64,000 bases of DNA, from the IMG/VR virus record IMGVR_UViG_3300034062_005626; one strand, given 5' to 3'. Under the pieces are notes generated by a model that searched no databases, was not told the DNA's origin, and was given only the letters and a program-made list of their open reading frames with translations. The stretch comes from a virus (taxonomy: Duplodnaviria; Caudoviricetes). Made by a program: the position numbers and the translations under genes. This document shows, one piece after another, positions 1,223 to 17,348 of this stretch (position 1 is its first letter; each line of letters starts with the position of its first letter).

Positions 1223-1524
1223 AATATGTTTAATTCTTTTCTATATTTTTTTATTTTTTCTCTTGTCTTTTGAAATTCATCTCCGTCACTTGCTTTATGA
1301 CCTTTACCAACAGCCTCTGTGATTATTAATTCGTTTTTTAAAATAAAAGTTAATTTTTCTGAATTTGTCAACTCATAAGGAACAACTTCTGTTCTGATGA
1401 ACTCACGAATCATCCCTCTTATCTTGTCAATCTGCTTAGTTGGGTTACCTTTAGCGTTATGACACATGATAGATGTTTGGTAAATTGTTCTACTTAGCTC
1501 TAATATTTTTTTATCAAATCCCAT
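1219..1524 (-). CDS. hypothetical protein
   Basis: 101 aa ORF, coupled on both sides. Confidence 0.7.
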   Translation of the reverse strand: MGFDKKILELSRTIYQTSIMCHNAKGNPTKQIDKIRGMIREFIRTEVVPYELTNSEKLTFILKNELIITEAVGKGHKASDGDEFQKTREKIKKYRKELNIL

Positions 1525-2524
1525 CTTTAACTGTATTTTTAATTACACCTTCAACTCTATGTTTATGTGGATAAGAGTCTTCAATAATATCTTTAACCCC
1601 CTCTTGAATGATGTATTCAACGACTCCTTCGTCACCACTTTTTCCCCATAGTGTTCTAGTATCTTCAATACGGTAAAGATTACTACTCTTTTGAAAACGG
1701 GTCTCTTTTACCCCATTTTGAATGGCATCTTTAATTGACCGAAACGGTTTTTGAAGTCTTTTACTGGTTTGTCTTACCCCATTTTGAATGGTGTCTTCAA
1801 CCTGGTTCGCTTTCACCTTTACCGAAAGGTTGGTGTGTCTTACCCCATTTTGAATGACATCTTCAACTTGTATCAAACCACTCTGGAAATTGAAGTGGGT
1901 GTCCTTAACCCCATTTTGAATAGCGTCTTCAACCTCATTATTTTGTTTTGGAGATTCAATTTGATGAACTATTTTACCTTTCATCTCTATTGAACCCAAA
2001 TAACCACTAGGTGTTGTTTCTTTCACCCCATTTTGAATGGTGTCTTCAATAACCAAGTCACTAGAATAATTGAAATAATCGGTGTGTCTTACACCATTTT
2101 GAATGGTGTCTTCAACGGTCGTTGAATGATTGACTTTGGAACAGCCGGTGTGTCTTACCCCATTTTGAATGGTGTCTTCAACCCATTTTGGGTAGCTGCG
2201 TTCATCACATTGGGTGTCCTTCACCCCATTTTGGATGGTGTCTTCAACAGGTTTAATACCCAAAAATCTTGATTCAAACCAGTTCTTAATAAAATCTCTT
2301 TCTTCAGTGCAATCCTTACCGATTAGTTCCAACTCACTTTTAAATAGGTTATAGTTGAACCATAAGGTTTTATCGTTTGTAAATTCAACCACCCATTTTT
2401 TTTCTTTGGTGAATATCAACCAAGTTGAACCTTGTTCTGTAACATACTTGTCTGCACCTTCAATCATTTGGTCAAACATTCCAAAAACAAGTTTCTCTAA
2501 TTTTTTTCCTGATGGATTTTTCAC
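1514..2524 (-). CDS. hypothetical protein with ~90 aa N-terminal domain and VEDTIQNGV(R/K)xT repeats separated by variable 10-aa linkers
   Basis: 336 aa ORF; repeat variants are mostly synonymous or conservative. Confidence 0.75.
   Translation of the reverse strand: MKNPSGKKLEKLVFGMFDQMIEGADKYVTEQGSTWLIFTKEKKWVVEFTNDKTLWFNYNLFKSELELIGKDCTEERDFIKNWFESRFLGIKPVEDTIQNGVKDTQCDERSYPKWVEDTIQNGVRHTGCSKVNHSTTVEDTIQNGVRHTDYFNYSSDLVIEDTIQNGVKETTPSGYLGSIEMKGKIVHQIESPKQNNEVEDAIQNGVKDTHFNFQSGLIQVEDVIQNGVRHTNLSVKVKANQVEDTIQNGVRQTSKRLQKPFRSIKDAIQNGVKETRFQKSSNLYRIEDTRTLWGKSGDEGVVEYIIQEGVKDIIEDSYPHKHRVEGVIKNTVKDGI
1700..2248. repeat. 36-nt direct repeat array with CRISPR-like geometry (GGTGTGTCTTACCCCATTTTGAATGGTGTCTTCAAC), inside a CDS
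   Basis: Repeats start at 1700, 1766, 1832, 1898, 2015, 2081, 2147, 2213. Six spacers are exactly 30 nt and one is 81 nt. Degenerate copies at 1520, 1586, 1634. No cas genes in the window. Confidence 0.9.
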
Positions 2525-4279: not shown

Positions 4280-4918
4280 TTATTTGAATTTTTTTACTTT
4301 GTTTTTACCTCTCATTTGATTGGCATATCCCAACCAAATCTTTTTGACTTTCGGCCATTCTTTTTTTGGATTGTCAAATTTTAAAATATTTTCTCTGAAC
4401 CATTCTTCCATGGCATCATCGAGTGATACTCTTTTGAATCTTGCTCTTGAAATTAACCCTTTTACATATGCAGGTATTTCATGTGGGTTTGTCAGGTATT
4501 CAAAGTTGTTGGTGTATTCAGTACTTGGGTAGTACATATCCTCAAAATTATCTTGACCGATATGTTCCACTTCATGTACTAATGTTTCTTTTAATTCGGC
4601 TGTAAAATCAACCATTACTTTAGGGAAGTCTTGAGGTCTATATGTAATCTCAATTTCTATAATATCAAATTCAGCGTCTGCACTTATTGAAAATGGATGA
4701 TTAAAATCTTCATCATAAATGAATTTACACACCACATCAAATTCGGCGTAATCATCACCTCTTTCTACATAATAGTTTTTAGTAAAATTTTCTTCTTGTT
4801 TGAAATGATAAATTACATCTCGATATATTTCATTAACAACTATATCAAGTTTACCTTCCTTAATTAAGTTTTTTTTTAACTTATTAACAATAATATTTTC
4901 AAATATAGAATTAATCAT
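4280..4918 (-). CDS. putative zincin-type metallopeptidase-like protein with N-terminal leader
   Basis: HEVEH (HExxH) plus downstream PHEIPAY; leader ends in NLIKE. Confidence 0.55.
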   Translation of the reverse strand: MINSIFENIIVNKLKKNLIKEGKLDIVVNEIYRDVIYHFKQEENFTKNYYVERGDDYAEFDVVCKFIYDEDFNHPFSISADAEFDIIEIEITYRPQDFPKVMVDFTAELKETLVHEVEHIGQDNFEDMYYPSTEYTNNFEYLTNPHEIPAYVKGLISRARFKRVSLDDAMEEWFRENILKFDNPKKEWPKVKKIWLGYANQMRGKNKVKKFK

Positions 4919-5960: not shown

Positions 5961-6037
5961 TGGTGGTCCCACCTGGGTTCGAACCAGAGACCTACGGTTT
6001 ATGAGACCGTTGCTCTAACCTGCTGAGCTATAAGACC
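5961..6037 (-). tRNA. tRNA-CAT (Met or Ile2), CCA encoded
   Basis: GGTCTTA/TGGGACC acceptor, ACGGT-CTCATAA-ACCGT anticodon arm, GGTTCGAACCC T arm, 3' ACCA. Confidence 0.93.
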
Positions 6038-6044
6038 AAAATAA

Positions 6045-6224
6045 TTATAATAGGTTTTTGAAAAACTGTGTCCATTTTTCAGTTGCGGGACCCAATAAAA
6101 TAACTGAACCCAAACAATAAATTATGGTCATCCAAGAAAATTCATTTTTAAAAAATAAATAAGTACACACAACACCAATGATGGTCATAAAAAGACCCAA
6201 AAAGGTAAAAAGATATTTTTTCAT
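6045..6224 (-). CDS. 59 aa 2-TM membrane protein
   Basis: MKKYLFTFLGLFMTIIGVVCTYLFFKNEFSWMTIIYCLGSVILLGPATEKWTQFFKNLL. Confidence 0.55.
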   Translation of the reverse strand: MKKYLFTFLGLFMTIIGVVCTYLFFKNEFSWMTIIYCLGSVILLGPATEKWTQFFKNLL

Positions 6225-6241
6225 ATATAATAATTTTTTTG

Positions 6242-6313
6242 CGGTCCATGCGAGAATCGAACTCGCGGCTCATCCGTGACAGGGATGAATGTTAGCCACT
6301 ACACCAATGGACC
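6242..6313 (-). tRNA. trnD: tRNA-Asp(GTC)
   Basis: GGTCCAT/ATGGACC acceptor, CATCC-CTGTCAC-GGATG anticodon arm. Confidence 0.93.
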
Positions 6314-6318
6314 TGTTT

Positions 6319-6588
6319 TTACAACTTTTGGACTTGTTCCATAACTTCTGTAACTTCTTCAGGATTTAAATAACCAATCACATCACTTGTAACAGAAGTT
6401 TCATATGTTAGATTACCTTCTTTGTCTAAAACTGCAATTTCGAACAAACCATCTTTTCCACCATATGAATATGTGTGAGACACAACACTAACTCCAAATC
6501 CGTTTTCAAACATCATTCGAGAACGAACACCTGACATATATGGTTCATCAGACAATTTATCAAATTCTAAATCTTCAAATTTTTTCAT
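6319..6588 (-). CDS. conserved hypothetical phage protein
   Basis: 89 aa with F.NG.GVSVV...SYGG..GLFEIAVL motif. Confidence 0.8.
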   Translation of the reverse strand: MKKFEDLEFDKLSDEPYMSGVRSRMMFENGFGVSVVSHTYSYGGKDGLFEIAVLDKEGNLTYETSVTSDVIGYLNPEEVTEVMEQVQKL

Positions 6589-6605
6589 AACTTTTAATTT
6601 TTTTG

Positions 6606-6724
6606 TAGTCAGGACAGGATTTGAACCTGTACCCTATGATTTGTACTTCATCATAGGAGCTTATGCTATTTTTATACAGTGGTGTCGCCCCACAGCAGCG
6701 TCTAACCAATTCCGCCACCTGACT
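6606..6724 (-). ncRNA. tRNA-like RNA with large non-canonical insert replacing the anticodon/variable region
   Basis: AGTCAGG/CCTGACT acceptor, GCG-GAATTGGTTAGA-CGC D arm, ACAGG-TTCAAAT-CCTGT T arm; centre has GTGG/CCAC and CCTATGAT/ATCATAGG hairpins and no 7-nt anticodon loop. Confidence 0.8.
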
Positions 6725-6775
6725 ATTTAATTTATCTCTTAGTGGATAAAAGCCTATCACAAAGGATTAGGTTTG

Positions 6776-6847
6776 TAGCCCATCCCGGTAACGCTCCGAG
6801 ATTTGTTGGATGAAAACCAACTGTCCTTACTTTTAGACGAATGGGCC
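6776..6847 (-). tRNA. trnE: tRNA-Glu(TTC)
   Basis: GTTGG-TTTTCAT-CCAAC anticodon arm; atypical T loop AGCGTTA. Confidence 0.85.
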
Positions 6848-6919
6848 GTAAATGAGGGTAGACGCGGGCTTAGCTAGCCGTCTTTCAGGAAAAGCCCTTT
6901 TTCATATTCTACCCCTTTG

Positions 6920-6986
6920 TAGTCAGGACAGGATTCGAACCTGCAATCTTCATTTACGATGCGTACTCCAATAACGCCACCTGACT
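6920..6986 (-). ncRNA. short tRNA-like RNA with collapsed anticodon domain
   Basis: Same AGTCAGG/CCTGACT acceptor and near-identical T arm as 6606-6724; only 16 nt (ATCGTAAATGAAGATT) between D and T arms. Confidence 0.75.
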
Positions 6987-7062
6987 ATGTCCTCGTCTTT
7001 CCGAGATGTCAATACGGATATTTTGTGTACAATTCAGGACTCTCGTATTGCTTCCTTAGTTG

Positions 7063-7136
7063 TAGTTAATACTGGACTCGAACCAATGACCTATTCCGTA
7101 TCAGGGAATCGCTCTAACCAACTGAGCTAATTAACT
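7063..7136 (-). tRNA. trnI: tRNA-Ile(GAT)
   Basis: AGTTAAT/ATTAACT acceptor, TTCC-CTGATAC-GGAA anticodon arm. Confidence 0.9.
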
Positions 7137-7280
7137 ATGTTTGTATTTAAAAGAATTTTGGTCAACCACTCGCATCCCACCAATCTATTGTATCAAACTT
7201 TCTGTAGTCTAAACGATTAAATCTCCTACTACTCATTTTCAACTCACTTGCCTAAGCCTTGTCCGTTGTAAATTCTTTTG

Positions 7281-7355
7281 TGGTATGGGAATGGAATCGA
7301 ACCATCGGCACAAGAGTTTTCGGGCTCTTTGCTCTACCTACTGAGCTACCACACC
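7281..7355 (-). tRNA. tRNA-Phe-like with 8-nt anticodon loop (CCCGAAAA)
   Basis: GGTGTGG/CCATACC acceptor, canonical D and T arms, AAGAG-CCCGAAAA-CTCTT. Confidence 0.8.
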
Positions 7356-16266: not shown

Positions 16267-16364
16267 ACCACAAAGATATATAAAAAAATTAATTGCACAA
16301 AAAAATGGATAATAATATTTTACTATCCATCAATTTTTTTACCGGTGGCTCCATTAAAAAAAAA

Positions 16365-17177
16365 CGCTGAGATTACACGTTTATTGTGAGAACCTTTAGA
16401 GTCATTATTGTTTCTACTCTTATCCACCATCTTTTGAATGGTATTTCTCAGTGACGATTATTTAGGTGAATCACTCCTTGAGGTCTAAACTACTCTCTTA
16501 TTACTCAACTCTCTTCGAGGATGCCTCCCCAACTCTTCCTTGCGGGAATAGAGGTCTTTTGTAAAAATACACTCAGCCTTGGGAGCTTTATGTGCCGTGA
16601 ACAACTCACGACTATGTAGTCACCTTTCGATTAGACCTGACGGACACTTTTCCTTATTTAAAATTAATAGTTAATAATAATTAAGTTTTGTGTCGTGGAT
16701 TGTGAAAGTAGTGGTCCGTCACGGGCTCTATTATCTTTTGAACAATAGAATACACAACTACTCTCTGAAATGTCCCCATTTCCATATTTCAAGACTACTT
16801 CGAAACTAACTCCTTGGTGGGAGTCGGTCAAGGTCAATAACAGCACCACCTGTACATCAACATACCTTTCGGTTTTAAGTATCCTCTAATAATGGAACTC
16901 GCAATAAAAGTGTTGGAACACTTTGTTTTGCAAAATTCCTACGAGTTATTCCTATTGGTGTTCCCACCTCAATTAGACGACCCACATCGCCCAATCATCT
17001 AACCACTTTCCCTACAGCGTTGCCCTCGGTACTAAAGGTTAAACGGTATCCCGCTTGTGTACTCGACCTCGATTATCCGAAGACAACCAAGACGCAAATC
17101 AATTACACTTTTGATTCACTTTATCCCACTTTCGTGGTTTATTTTAATGGACCATACACGGCCCATTGAACTCTTCG
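16365..17177 (-). ncRNA. large structured ncRNA (~810 nt), GOLLD-like
   Basis: No credible ORF, GC well above flanks, many helices with GNRA/UUCG loops (CCAC-GAAA-GTGG, GTC-TTCG-GAT, CC-GAAA-GG, CC-GCAA-GG); own promoter and boxA; length and phage/tRNA-proximal context fit GOLLD. Confidence 0.65.
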
Positions 17178-17252: not shown

Positions 17253-17348
17253 TCAAAGAACGTTTGTGATTTGAATACTGAGTATCTTTCATCACCTATA
17301 AGTTTCAAATCTTTTACAAAGTTATGTATTTAATTTGAGACTGTCAAA
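17253..17348 (-). promoter_or_regulatory. promoter (TTTG...TAACTTTG) plus hairpin and boxA-like GTTCTTTGAAA
   Basis: Minus strand TTTGACAGTCTCAAATTAAATACATAACTTTG then GTGAT...ATCAC hairpin then GTTCTTTGA. Confidence 0.65.

Follow-up and report, generated by a model that had tools for sequence, protein, structure and literature searches.

Type VI-B CRISPR arrays of Flavobacterium, such as those of F. columnare ATCC 23463 (L043), F. covae (L055) and Flavobacterium sp. J27 (L048), consist of 36-nt repeats that alternate with unrelated inserts of approximately 30 nt, and they carry degenerate repeat copies at one end. No protein is encoded by these arrays. Spacer length is 29-31 nt (72% are exactly 30 nt), spacer GC content is 31.6% (32 spacers), and only 47% of the spacers are stop-free in the matching frame. 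The real VI-B array adjoins an ORF of 1244 aa, and its degenerate repeat lies at the 3' trailer end. A different group, the so-called false CRISPRs, shows a repeat-spacer layout within a protein-coding gene that has no companion cas genes, and this class is defined by low spacer diversity (Zhang & Ye 2017, PMC5294841). Racrs, in turn, are small non-coding RNAs that have a promoter of their own; they share high identity with the cognate repeat and match its structure (Camara-Wilpert et al. 2023, PMC10651486).

The array described here resembles each of these systems. It lies in a 64,000-nucleotide stretch of DNA (hereafter the window) that derives from an uncultured lake phage; a SprB repeat gene and promoter patterns of Bacteroidota type suggest that the host probably belongs to the Bacteroidota. 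The array gene encodes an N-terminal globular domain (N-domain), followed by an array of repeats and cassettes and then by a C-terminal tail that is degenerate (Table 1), and its homologues begin with MKNPSGKK or MNNPSGKK at the start site given there. Each unit of the array has 22 residues, of which 12 are constant (VEDTIQNGV-K/R-x-T) and exactly 10 form a variable cassette. A repeat search placed successive copies at spacings of 66, 66, 66, 117, 66, 66 and 66 nt. The first-pass annotation of this DNA had reported eight 36-nt repeats with six 30-nt spacers and one of 81 nt, and this CRISPR-like geometry was reproduced, with a ninth, degenerate repeat in addition. Like the false CRISPRs, the array is part of a gene and lacks companion cas genes. 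Unlike them, it has 'spacers' as diverse and unrelated as real ones, and therefore it passes for a CRISPR array. Racrs and solitary repeat units are also phage-borne and resemble CRISPR repeats without cas genes, but the phage array is coding, reaches 67% identity and has an unlike structure, and we do not class it as a Racr. Judged by its sequence, it is not a working CRISPR array but a coding one.

Table 1. Features of the array locus. Positions are those of the window; (-), minus strand.
Feature	Position	Strand	Remarks
Downstream neighbour, 101 aa	1219-1524	(-)	Begins within the 3' end of the array gene; from the ORF list
Array gene	1514-2524	(-)	336 aa (P0001), GTG start; from the ORF list and translation
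N-domain	2249-2524	(-)	Residues 1-92; fold alpha1-beta1-4-alpha2-alpha3
Repeat array, eight canonical 36-nt copies	1700-2248	(-)	Motif V/I-E/K-D-T/A/V-I-Q-N-G-V-K/R-x-T
Repeats (codon register)	2213-2248, 2147-2182, 2081-2116, 2015-2050, 1898-1933, 1832-1867, 1766-1801, 1700-1735	(-)	
Cassette QCDERSYPKW, 30 nt	2183-2212	(-)	Recurs in P0004, P0005, P0010, P0027 and P0028, in other contexts
Cassette GCSKVNHSTT, 30 nt	2117-2146	(-)	
Cassette DYFNYSSDLV, 30 nt	2051-2080	(-)	Sister cassette DYFEYTNNTL, 12/30 diverged
Conserved 81-nt (27-aa) module	1934-2014	(-)	TPSGYLGSIEMKGKIVHQIESPKQNNE; found in most family members
Cassette HFNFQSGLIQ, 30 nt	1868-1897	(-)	
Cassette NLSVKVKANQ, 30 nt	1802-1831	(-)	
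Cassette SKRLQKPFRS, 30 nt	1736-1765	(-)	
C-terminal tail with degenerate repeat copies	1514-1699	(-)	Strongly conserved among close relatives
Ninth repeat, degenerate	1586-1621	(-)	VEYIIQEGVKDI
ORF with HExxH motif	4280-4918		Syntenic in L002 and L029

To assess coding selection, we used 33 related loci that had been gathered by the non-repeat N-domain alone, so that the set is unbiased with respect to array intactness. Every repeat cluster in these loci lies in frame within a long ORF, and the length of the linker between repeats was divisible by 3 in 262 of 262 cases (exactly 30 nt in 202). None of the 86 distinct 30-nt cassettes contained a stop codon in frame 0, as compared to 24-40 of the 86 (28-47%) in each of the other five frames, which carries the earlier observation of in-frame, stop-free units on the minus strand far past chance. 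Among 306 repeat copies, second codon positions were nearly invariant and third positions variable, with minor bases at 22-45% at the synonymous sites (positions 9, 12, 24, 27, 30, 33 and 36). Repeat variants are thus mostly synonymous or conservative, as the first-pass annotation had proposed, and fall mainly at third positions. The pN/pS ratio was 0.42 in the repeats, 0.39 in the N-domain and 0.35-0.64 in the cassettes; the last value superseded an early small count (5 synonymous and 13 non-synonymous changes), and we dropped the idea that the cassettes are neutral filler. On this comparative sequence evidence, the array gene is an ordinary translated phage gene under clear coding selection. 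Two metatranscriptome contigs (X17 and X18) match the array in part, differing from it by 1-9 mismatches and by rearranged joints. We do not use them as evidence of expression, since neither the strand nor any processing can be read from contigs and they may stem from carried-over DNA.

The gene belongs to a broad family. We found 2252 relatives of the array protein at E<=1e-3, and the N-domain family formed 267 clusters at 50% identity (phmmer), in proteins of 75-611 aa that always place the N-domain first. At least 326 distinct cassettes occur in the family. Distant members retain the peptide motif with a period of 22 residues in 225 cases, 23 in 39 and 24 in 15, within an overall range of 21-27 residues. 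As in protein tandem-repeat families, the peptide is kept while the DNA diverges, the copy number varies and the units remain in frame. The most widely shared cassettes are the C-terminal ones, and the nucleotide divergence of the 27-aa module is 2%, as compared to 12% for the N-domain. A collection of 50,697 phage records yielded no match in tblastn with the protein or megablast with 12 kb, and chance matches alone (E>=0.2) in distant blastn with the array; the nearest virus record (G001) has no relative.

The N-domain was modelled by AF2 with a pLDDT of 90.6 (53 sequences). Its fold matches were limited to uncharacterised proteins from uncultured phages, and Foldseek gave none under E 0.07 in the PDB and AFDB clusters; a profile search of PDB sequences found zero solved relatives. 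A search of the ESM Atlas gave no usable match. The AF2 model of the whole protein had a pLDDT of 43.5, and we draw no fold for the array, because the beta-hairpin that AF2 gave to the repeat clashes with the helical setting in which the motif occurs where the N-domain ends. The stretch xEDxIQNxV is similar to the beginning of the dodecin helix, and some relatives bear a precomputed PF07311 match or the JGI label 'dodecin'. However, the array protein has no domain of dodecin size; its PF07311 score was 22.1 bits, below the cut-off of 22.5, with profile positions 14-26 (13 residues) alone matched, and this assignment was rejected.

The N-domain itself points to a source of the repeat. In 61 of 239 relatives it ends in W-x-E-[DNES]-x-[ILV]-x-[NE]-[GK] (for example WVEDNIINGVKHT), a segment that sits in helix alpha3 of the model, and in one related locus (L088) the DNA of this end segment is identical to the repeat consensus at 26 of 36 positions. 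The repeat motif probably originated when the final stretch of the N-domain was duplicated internally. Such a duplication is likelier than a captured array, because the motif continues the last helix of the N-domain and the likeness to CRISPR repeats fades in diverged units.

Comparison of the relatives shows that the array is diversified by cassette duplication and divergence together with recombination. Identical cassettes recur among relatives in differing combinations and orders, and cassettes common to loci with 12%-different N-domains are identical. The widely shared cassette QTRMWPPVGA had 20 exact matches in public contig collections, all repeat-flanked and in at least 10 neighbour contexts; as all 20 sit inside arrays, no protospacer was seen. 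Exact scans of IMG/VR with GCSKVNHSTT and NLSVKVKANQ returned nothing, arrays included, and were uninformative. Contigs from lake samples of 2016 and 2024 diverge precisely where repeat and cassette meet, and bear alternative cassettes. Codons 9-12 of the upstream repeat and codons 1-4 of the downstream repeat move with the cassette (variability within cassette families 0.01-0.14, versus 0.30-1.0 overall), whereas the remote half of each repeat is not linked to it.

The comparison also shows the route of exchange. Crossovers take place in an invariant 12-nt core, ATT CAA AAT GGG (ATTCAAAATGGG), so that the mobile unit comprises the second half of one repeat, the cassette and the first half of the next (66 nt), and the frame is preserved at every exchange of a module. 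Most new cassette content stems from duplicated cassettes that then diverge by point changes, with mild constraint, and it spreads by homologous recombination or template switching among tandem paralogues and relatives that co-infect a host. Short variable modules that are swapped on a constant scaffold also occur in lamprey VLRs (LRR cassettes), in bacterial antigenic variation by gene conversion and in cyanobactin precursors, which have hypervariable cores. By analogy, the likeness may lie in recombination at conserved junctions, but the phage array shows no donor cassette library or dedicated enzyme, and its modules seem to be traded among alleles and paralogues of this one gene within a phage population.

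Overall, the best explanation, to which we assign a probability of roughly 0.85, is a modular tandem-repeat phage protein whose cassettes are swapped, and not a guide-RNA array. The suggestion in the first-pass annotation of a protein with diversified 10-aa linkers was essentially right, given the coding selection and the large pool of shuffled cassettes. The 36+30 geometry is a by-product of the 12+10-residue period of the protein.

We also examined the composition of the cassettes. Those of the window have GC contents of 0.47, 0.47, 0.27, 0.37, 0.47 and 0.37, as compared to 0.30 for the window, which bears out the earlier remark that several are GC-rich relative to the genome; family-wide, the values are 0.405 versus 0.32. 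By codon position, cassette GC is.43/.41/.38, as compared to.40/.33/.215 in ordinary genes, and stop avoidance adds just +1.3% GC. The amino acid content of the cassettes (Arg 7.3%, His 3.3%) is closer to a random-codon model (chi2 209) than to ordinary window proteins (chi2 422), and the repeats employ the rare codons ACC, GGG and GTG. This GC-rich, flat composition is not predicted by simple divergence under AT-biased phage mutation, and it counts against the best explanation.

The relationships among cassettes were examined as well. They are mutually unrelated, as first noted (pairwise Hamming mode 22/30), and their longest common words equal those of shuffles on both strands. Most pairs are either near-identical or unrelated, which also counts against the best explanation. 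Nevertheless, 8 pairs differ at <=12/30 positions, versus an expectation of 0.95 and at most 5 in any of 300 shuffles, and these intermediate pairs argue for divergence in place. Recycling of cassettes from others in a different frame or strand was rejected, as the all-against-all similarity matches shuffles. A diversity-generating retroelement, which pairs a variable region with a template repeat, was not supported by the cassettes either: they have no common template, being no more alike than shuffles on either strand. The strict 30-nt length hints at a ruler or at strong constraint from structure, and in 40% of arrays the cassette that directly follows the N-domain is a singleton, versus 7-21% at other positions (uncorrected for relatedness); both the length and this N-proximal polarity count against the best explanation.

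The 66-nt modules could instead have been made or imported by a length-measuring process, either through descent from VI-B or II-C arrays of Flavobacterium, or ongoing traffic with them, or through a novel insertion mechanism with a 30-nt ruler beside the N-domain. We consider this improbable; if it were true, the phage would convert CRISPR-style sequence capture to protein diversity.

A historical form of this idea, put forward in the first-pass annotation and now very unlikely, is that an ancestor phage captured a Bacteroidota VI-B (or II-C) array, which became fused antisense and in frame behind the N-domain, with former spacers as linkers. Since 36+30 = 66 = 22 codons, such an array could have become a repeat protein, and the phage geometry is precisely 36+30. 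The plus-strand repeat is identical without gaps at 24 of 36 positions to those of F. columnare, F. covae and Flavobacterium sp. J27 (including ATTTTGAA, GGT, TCT and the CAAC end), although the chosen search pattern itself dictated 18 of these 24 and the free positions match at 6 of 18. About 550,000 background 36-mers peaked at 21/36 against the real VI-B repeat, which counts against coincidence, and the real repeat, too, reads through without a stop when translated antisense (VVDTLQNKGFPN, versus VEDTIQNGVRHT in the phage). The unrelated, random-like cassettes without codon-position structure and the indications of a Bacteroidota host would also fit a captured array.

Structure, polarity and cassette content speak against capture. 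The letters of the hairpin CCAT-TTTGA-ATGG and of the G.TG...CAAC ends are present, as the first-pass annotation had stated, but the predicted structure is not significant. The two strands of the repeat gave minimum free energies of -5.1 and -5.6 kcal/mol (z 0.11 and -0.28) with unpaired ends, and 99 of 200 shuffles folded as well as -5.1, as compared to -10.9 kcal/mol (z -2.5) and paired ends for the real VI-B repeat. The likeness to Cas13b repeats that the first-pass annotation had pointed out is real, and the defining closed hairpin is absent. In diverged units of distant members that retain the peptide motif, the likeness drops to 9-18/36. No array repeat nearer than 24/36 was found among 185,579 species (scanned half), and the Rfam CRISPR-DR families gave no match even at E<=10. 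In the repeat-like plus-strand orientation, degenerate copies lie at the 5' end, where the leader would be, and novel cassettes at the 3' end, which is the reverse of the L043 and L055 arrays and of those in Hoikkala 2021. Comparison of orthologues, proposed at first pass as a way to see polarised unit gain, showed a freely permuted cassette order as well as this opposite polarity.

The cassettes also differ from real spacers in GC content (40.5% versus 31.6%), in their visible divergence in place and in being in frame in every unit, and the 21-27-residue periods of distant members and the continuity of the motif with the last helix of the N-domain likewise do not favour capture. No protospacers were found beyond the shuffled control in the window and related loci, and none in the 50,697 phage records; real Flavobacterium spacers matched the window in short chance words alone. 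Homologues conserve the linker peptides and spacer matches were absent, two signs that the first-pass annotation had associated with an ordinary protein repeat; a third, the lack of similarity to any CRISPR repeat, was not borne out. With the array read as a modular protein, its antisense likeness to the VI-B repeat is most likely a coincidence, sharpened by shared AT-rich words.

The gene neighbourhood was then considered. The 101-aa neighbour lies directly downstream in 20 related loci (75-99% identity) and matched no family in Pfam or PHROG. The locus is syntenic across 25 related phage contigs, with the recurring order o2725, o2534, the array gene (one or two copies), o1219 ... thyA. Searches of ten neighbours against Pfam and PHROGs assigned no function and found no maturation enzyme family. 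No Cas domain was present in the 20 ORFs scanned, and no ORF of cas13b size was found in the 64-kb window, in which the largest ORF has 790 aa. Scans for promoters and terminators gave counts inside the shuffle range, with no excess of Bacteroidota-type or sigma-70-type promoters on the plus strand.

These data bear on the possibility that the protein is a multi-core precursor, in which the 12-residue motifs would be recognition or cleavage sites and the 10-residue cassettes would be freed as a peptide library, in a cyanobactin-like manner. The alternation of constant flanks with hypervariable cores of fixed length, the long conserved N-terminal 'leader', the Cys-rich cores (for example, SKWCDDCGPR and VSTCKEYLQV) and the unassigned ORF with an HExxH motif 1.8 kb upstream are consistent with such a precursor. 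However, no maturation enzyme family was recognised in the ten neighbours searched, the half-repeats co-vary with the cassette instead of forming sharply constant flanks, and the 27-aa module and C-terminal tail are conserved like structural parts. To our knowledge, there is no phage precedent, and we regard a precursor as highly improbable.

Least credible is the dual-use locus that the first-pass annotation had also raised, in which a plus-strand transcript with 8-18 tandem look-alikes of the Cas13b repeat would serve as Racr-like decoy or guide RNAs: the 24/36 likeness, the canonical repeat DNA with rare codons common to genes with ~40%-identical N-domains, and the Racr surveys, which had no type VI candidates and would miss such a case because they masked confident ORFs (PMC10651486), leave room for it, but Racrs need high identity and matching structure, which a 67% identical repeat without that structure does not offer, and the freely varying synonymous sites of the repeat, its decaying likeness, the distance to the nearest array repeats, and the lack of an Rfam match, a plus-strand promoter-like site and a Cas13b-size ORF give it no support.

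For the modular protein favoured here, the array may show variable short peptides on a constant scaffold, from an early or host-takeover operon, as a diversifying surface for phage-host or phage-phage conflict; we offer this role tentatively and consider it doubtful. For annotation, the finding means that a family abundant in lake metagenomes will be miscalled as orphan CRISPR by repeat-spacer finders, and that frame tests cleanly separate it from real CRISPR arrays. The odd composition (an AT-rich phage with rare codons and with cassettes that are GC-rich and random-like), together with the likeness to the Cas13b repeat, is concrete and testable. For phage biology, the array gene represents a large undescribed protein family with a natural module-swapping design, whose cassette variants coexist within individual lake samples taken eight years apart. 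The design offers a route to protein diversity distinct from diversity-generating retroelements, and possibly a natural peptide-display scaffold.

The window contains nine copies of a 36-nt unit at 1586-2248. The starts of the eight clean copies are spaced 66 nt apart, except for one step of 117 nt. The inserts are in codon register, six being exactly 30 nt and one 81 nt, and the degenerate ninth copy is reached after a 78-nt stretch. The repeat and spacer geometry described in the first-pass annotation is thus confirmed, all repeats and inserts lying within one minus-strand ORF. Its protein comprises a 92-residue non-repetitive head, VEDTIQNGV(K/R)xT motifs alternating with 10-residue linkers (cassettes), and a degenerate tail.

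Table. Positions of the array gene and other features of the window
Feature	Coordinates	Strand	Remarks
Array gene ORF, 336 aa	1514-2524	-	contains all repeats and inserts
ORF, 212 aa, HEVEH (HExxH) metalloprotease-like motif	4280-4918	-	same operon as array gene; syntenic in related phage loci L002 and L029; no match in Pfam or PHROG
tRNA, four-letter anticodon (cgaa), i.e. 8-nt loop	7280-7355	-	ARAGORN; member of tRNA cluster 5961-7355
GOLLD RNA, full-length	16364-16765	-	Rfam RF02032, 328 bits, model positions 1-416
Bacteroidota-type promoter pattern	17317-17348		upstream of GOLLD RNA
SprB-repeat ORF, 530 aa	57567-59159	-	PF13573, E 2.4e-8

To escape gene-caller bias, relatives were fetched via the head domain alone, which yielded 32 IMG/VR loci. 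Each repeat cluster in these loci is in frame within a long ORF, and linker length is divisible by three in 262/262 cases and equals 30 nt in 202 of them. All 86 distinct 30-nt cassettes are stop-free in the coding frame, whereas each of the other five frames is interrupted in 24-40 of them. Across 306 repeat copies, second codon positions are almost invariant and variation at four-fold third positions reaches 22-45%; pN/pS is 0.42 for repeats, 0.39 for heads and 0.35-0.64 for cassettes. A stop lies inside the array of related loci L009/L010 (at 3879), and the frame changes in L012-L014 (about 1715-1791 in L012) and L027 (about 258). These interruptions may reflect pseudogenes, programmed shifts or misassembly of the repeats; a few broken relatives are expected for a gene, or from such misassembly.

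The element behaves as a cassette-shuffled repeat protein. Among close homologues (80-96% head identity), exactly identical 10-residue peptides recur, and their number, combination and order differ. Five cassettes common to the phage locus L028 and an upstream paralogue in L025 are fully identical in nucleotide sequence, in permuted order, and shared cassettes remain identical between loci with 12% head divergence. An exact scan of JGI metagenomes and IMG/VR with the GC-rich cassette QTRMWPPVGA gave 20 matches, all repeat-flanked on both sides, in at least 10 different neighbour contexts, which shows that cassettes shuffle freely. In lake contigs from 2016 and 2024, branch points fall exactly at repeat-cassette boundaries, with alternative cassettes beyond. 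A linkage analysis of 230 units ties the cassette to codons 9-12 of the repeat upstream and codons 1-4 of the repeat downstream (variability 0.01-0.14 within a family versus 0.30-1.0 overall), and the far halves of the flanking repeats show no linkage to it. This pattern places the crossovers in the invariant core ATT CAA AAT GGG, so that a 66-nt module with the cassette at its centre is exchanged. Some phages (L005-L010, L023, L025/L026) carry two tandem array-gene paralogues, the upstream one lacking the same head match and drawing on a partly separate cassette pool common to L028.

The pool comprises at least 326 non-redundant cassettes in about 270 proteins. Cassettes are mutually unrelated on both strands, and their amino-acid make-up is closer to a random-codon model than to ordinary proteins of this phage. 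One explanation is that they are made by de novo insertion. A clear excess of intermediate pairs (<=12/30 differences; 8 versus 0.95 expected, maximum 5 in 300 column shuffles), such as DYFNYSSDLV/DYFEYTNNTL and IDIEHRNKFI/FDMEFRNQLS, counts against this and, together with the cassette pN/pS, leads us to read most cassettes as probable diverged duplicates under mild constraint. Cassette GC is 40.5% and flat across codon positions (ordinary genes,.40/.33/.215), and the repeats use the rare codons ACC, GGG and GTG. Stop avoidance accounts for only 1.3% of the cassette GC excess; GC-biased repair at a recombination hot spot, or decay of young canonical units towards AT, are guesses that both fit the drift seen in distant or diverged units. 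By raw counts, uncorrected for relatedness, 40% of arrays have a singleton as their first cassette, versus 7-21% at other positions. The commonest cassettes, again by raw counts, are C-terminal, and internal swaps also separate close array pairs.

A full phmmer search with the head gave 267 clusters (50% identity) of 75-611-aa proteins, in all of which the domain is N-terminal. Its AF2 model (53 sequences; pLDDT 90.6) has a helix, four strands and two helices; it matched no solved structure or AFDB entry, the sole fold matches being uncharacterised proteins of uncultured phages (TM 0.6-0.8). In 61/239 heads the last helix continues directly into a full motif copy, e.g. WVEDNIINGVKHT; in locus L088 the DNA of that copy matches the repeat consensus at 26/36 positions, and its counterpart in the window, WFESRFLG, is degenerate. 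Duplication of the head-domain end is the simplest origin for the repeat, which argues against a captured CRISPR array.

The likeness to Cas13b repeats noted in the first-pass annotation holds. When a single genome from each species was scanned with the 3' half of the plus-strand repeat (three free positions), three true arrays were recovered, in F. columnare (L043, adjoining a 1244-aa ORF), F. covae (L055) and Flavobacterium sp. J27 (L048). The window plus-strand repeat is 24/36 identical to theirs, 18 of these identities being preset by the search pattern and only 6/18 remaining positions agreeing; array units score 20-25, against a maximum of 21 among ~550,000 background 36-mers of the same phages. 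The J27 array (L048:1856-3270, reverse strand), genuinely of VI-B type, also contains hybrid repeats, in which a different 15-nt 5' part joins the normal 3' 21 nt, each after an 80-82-nt gap. The likeness is weakened in several ways besides the preset identities. The real repeat forms a closed stem-loop (-10.9 kcal/mol, z -2.5) that is absent from the window repeat on both strands (-5.1 and -5.6 kcal/mol, z about 0). Real spacers measure 29-31 nt and have a GC content of 31.6%; in only 47% of them is the corresponding frame open. In the crRNA sense, real arrays have the leader 5' and a truncated terminal repeat 3' (L043/L055; Hoikkala et al. 2021, PMC8092290), whereas degenerate copies lie at the 5' end of the window array in the same orientation. 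Among distant members of the family, units retaining the peptide motif in other codons drop to 9-18/36, and therefore selection acts on the peptide rather than on CRISPR likeness. No CRISPR repeat family was matched in Rfam even at E<=10, no ORF in the 64-kb window approaches Cas13b size, no protospacer was found among the 20 exact QTRMWPPVGA matches, and no cassette matched the window or loci above the shuffled control. We place the element outside CRISPR arrays because four defining features of such arrays were looked for and not found. Given the coding-frame constraint, missing hairpin, reversed polarity, permuted cassettes and continuity of the motif with the head, the CRISPR readings are unlikely. 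Identities as an RNA anti-CRISPR (Racr) or a dodecin were rejected.

The window is phage-like: it encodes a tRNA cluster and a GOLLD RNA, thyA lies at its edge, and almost all its genes share one strand. Near-identical DNA occurs in lake-water metagenomes from 16 studies (2016-2024). The ORF with an SprB repeat, a domain of Bacteroidota gliding-motility adhesins, is a hint that the host is a member of the Bacteroidota. The array gene, overlapped and followed by a 101-aa gene, belongs to a conserved operon, bounded by a 193-aa ORF and thyA, whose genes are small and uncharacterised, with no recognisable structural genes around it. Its distant relatives at L089:2926-3525 and L090:1546-2433 neighbour genes for an S-AdoMet lyase, an anti-restriction type, and a NUMOD3/TnsA-like endonuclease.

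Published "false CRISPRs" lack spacer diversity (PMC5294841) and differ from the window element on that point; surveys for Racrs excluded ORFs by masking and reported no candidates of type VI (PMC10651486). Our literature search found no paper describing these genes, and the array gene is a member of an undescribed, unusual protein family. Its product might, tentatively, present a variable peptide surface in phage-host or phage-phage conflict, a multi-core peptide precursor being the weaker alternative.
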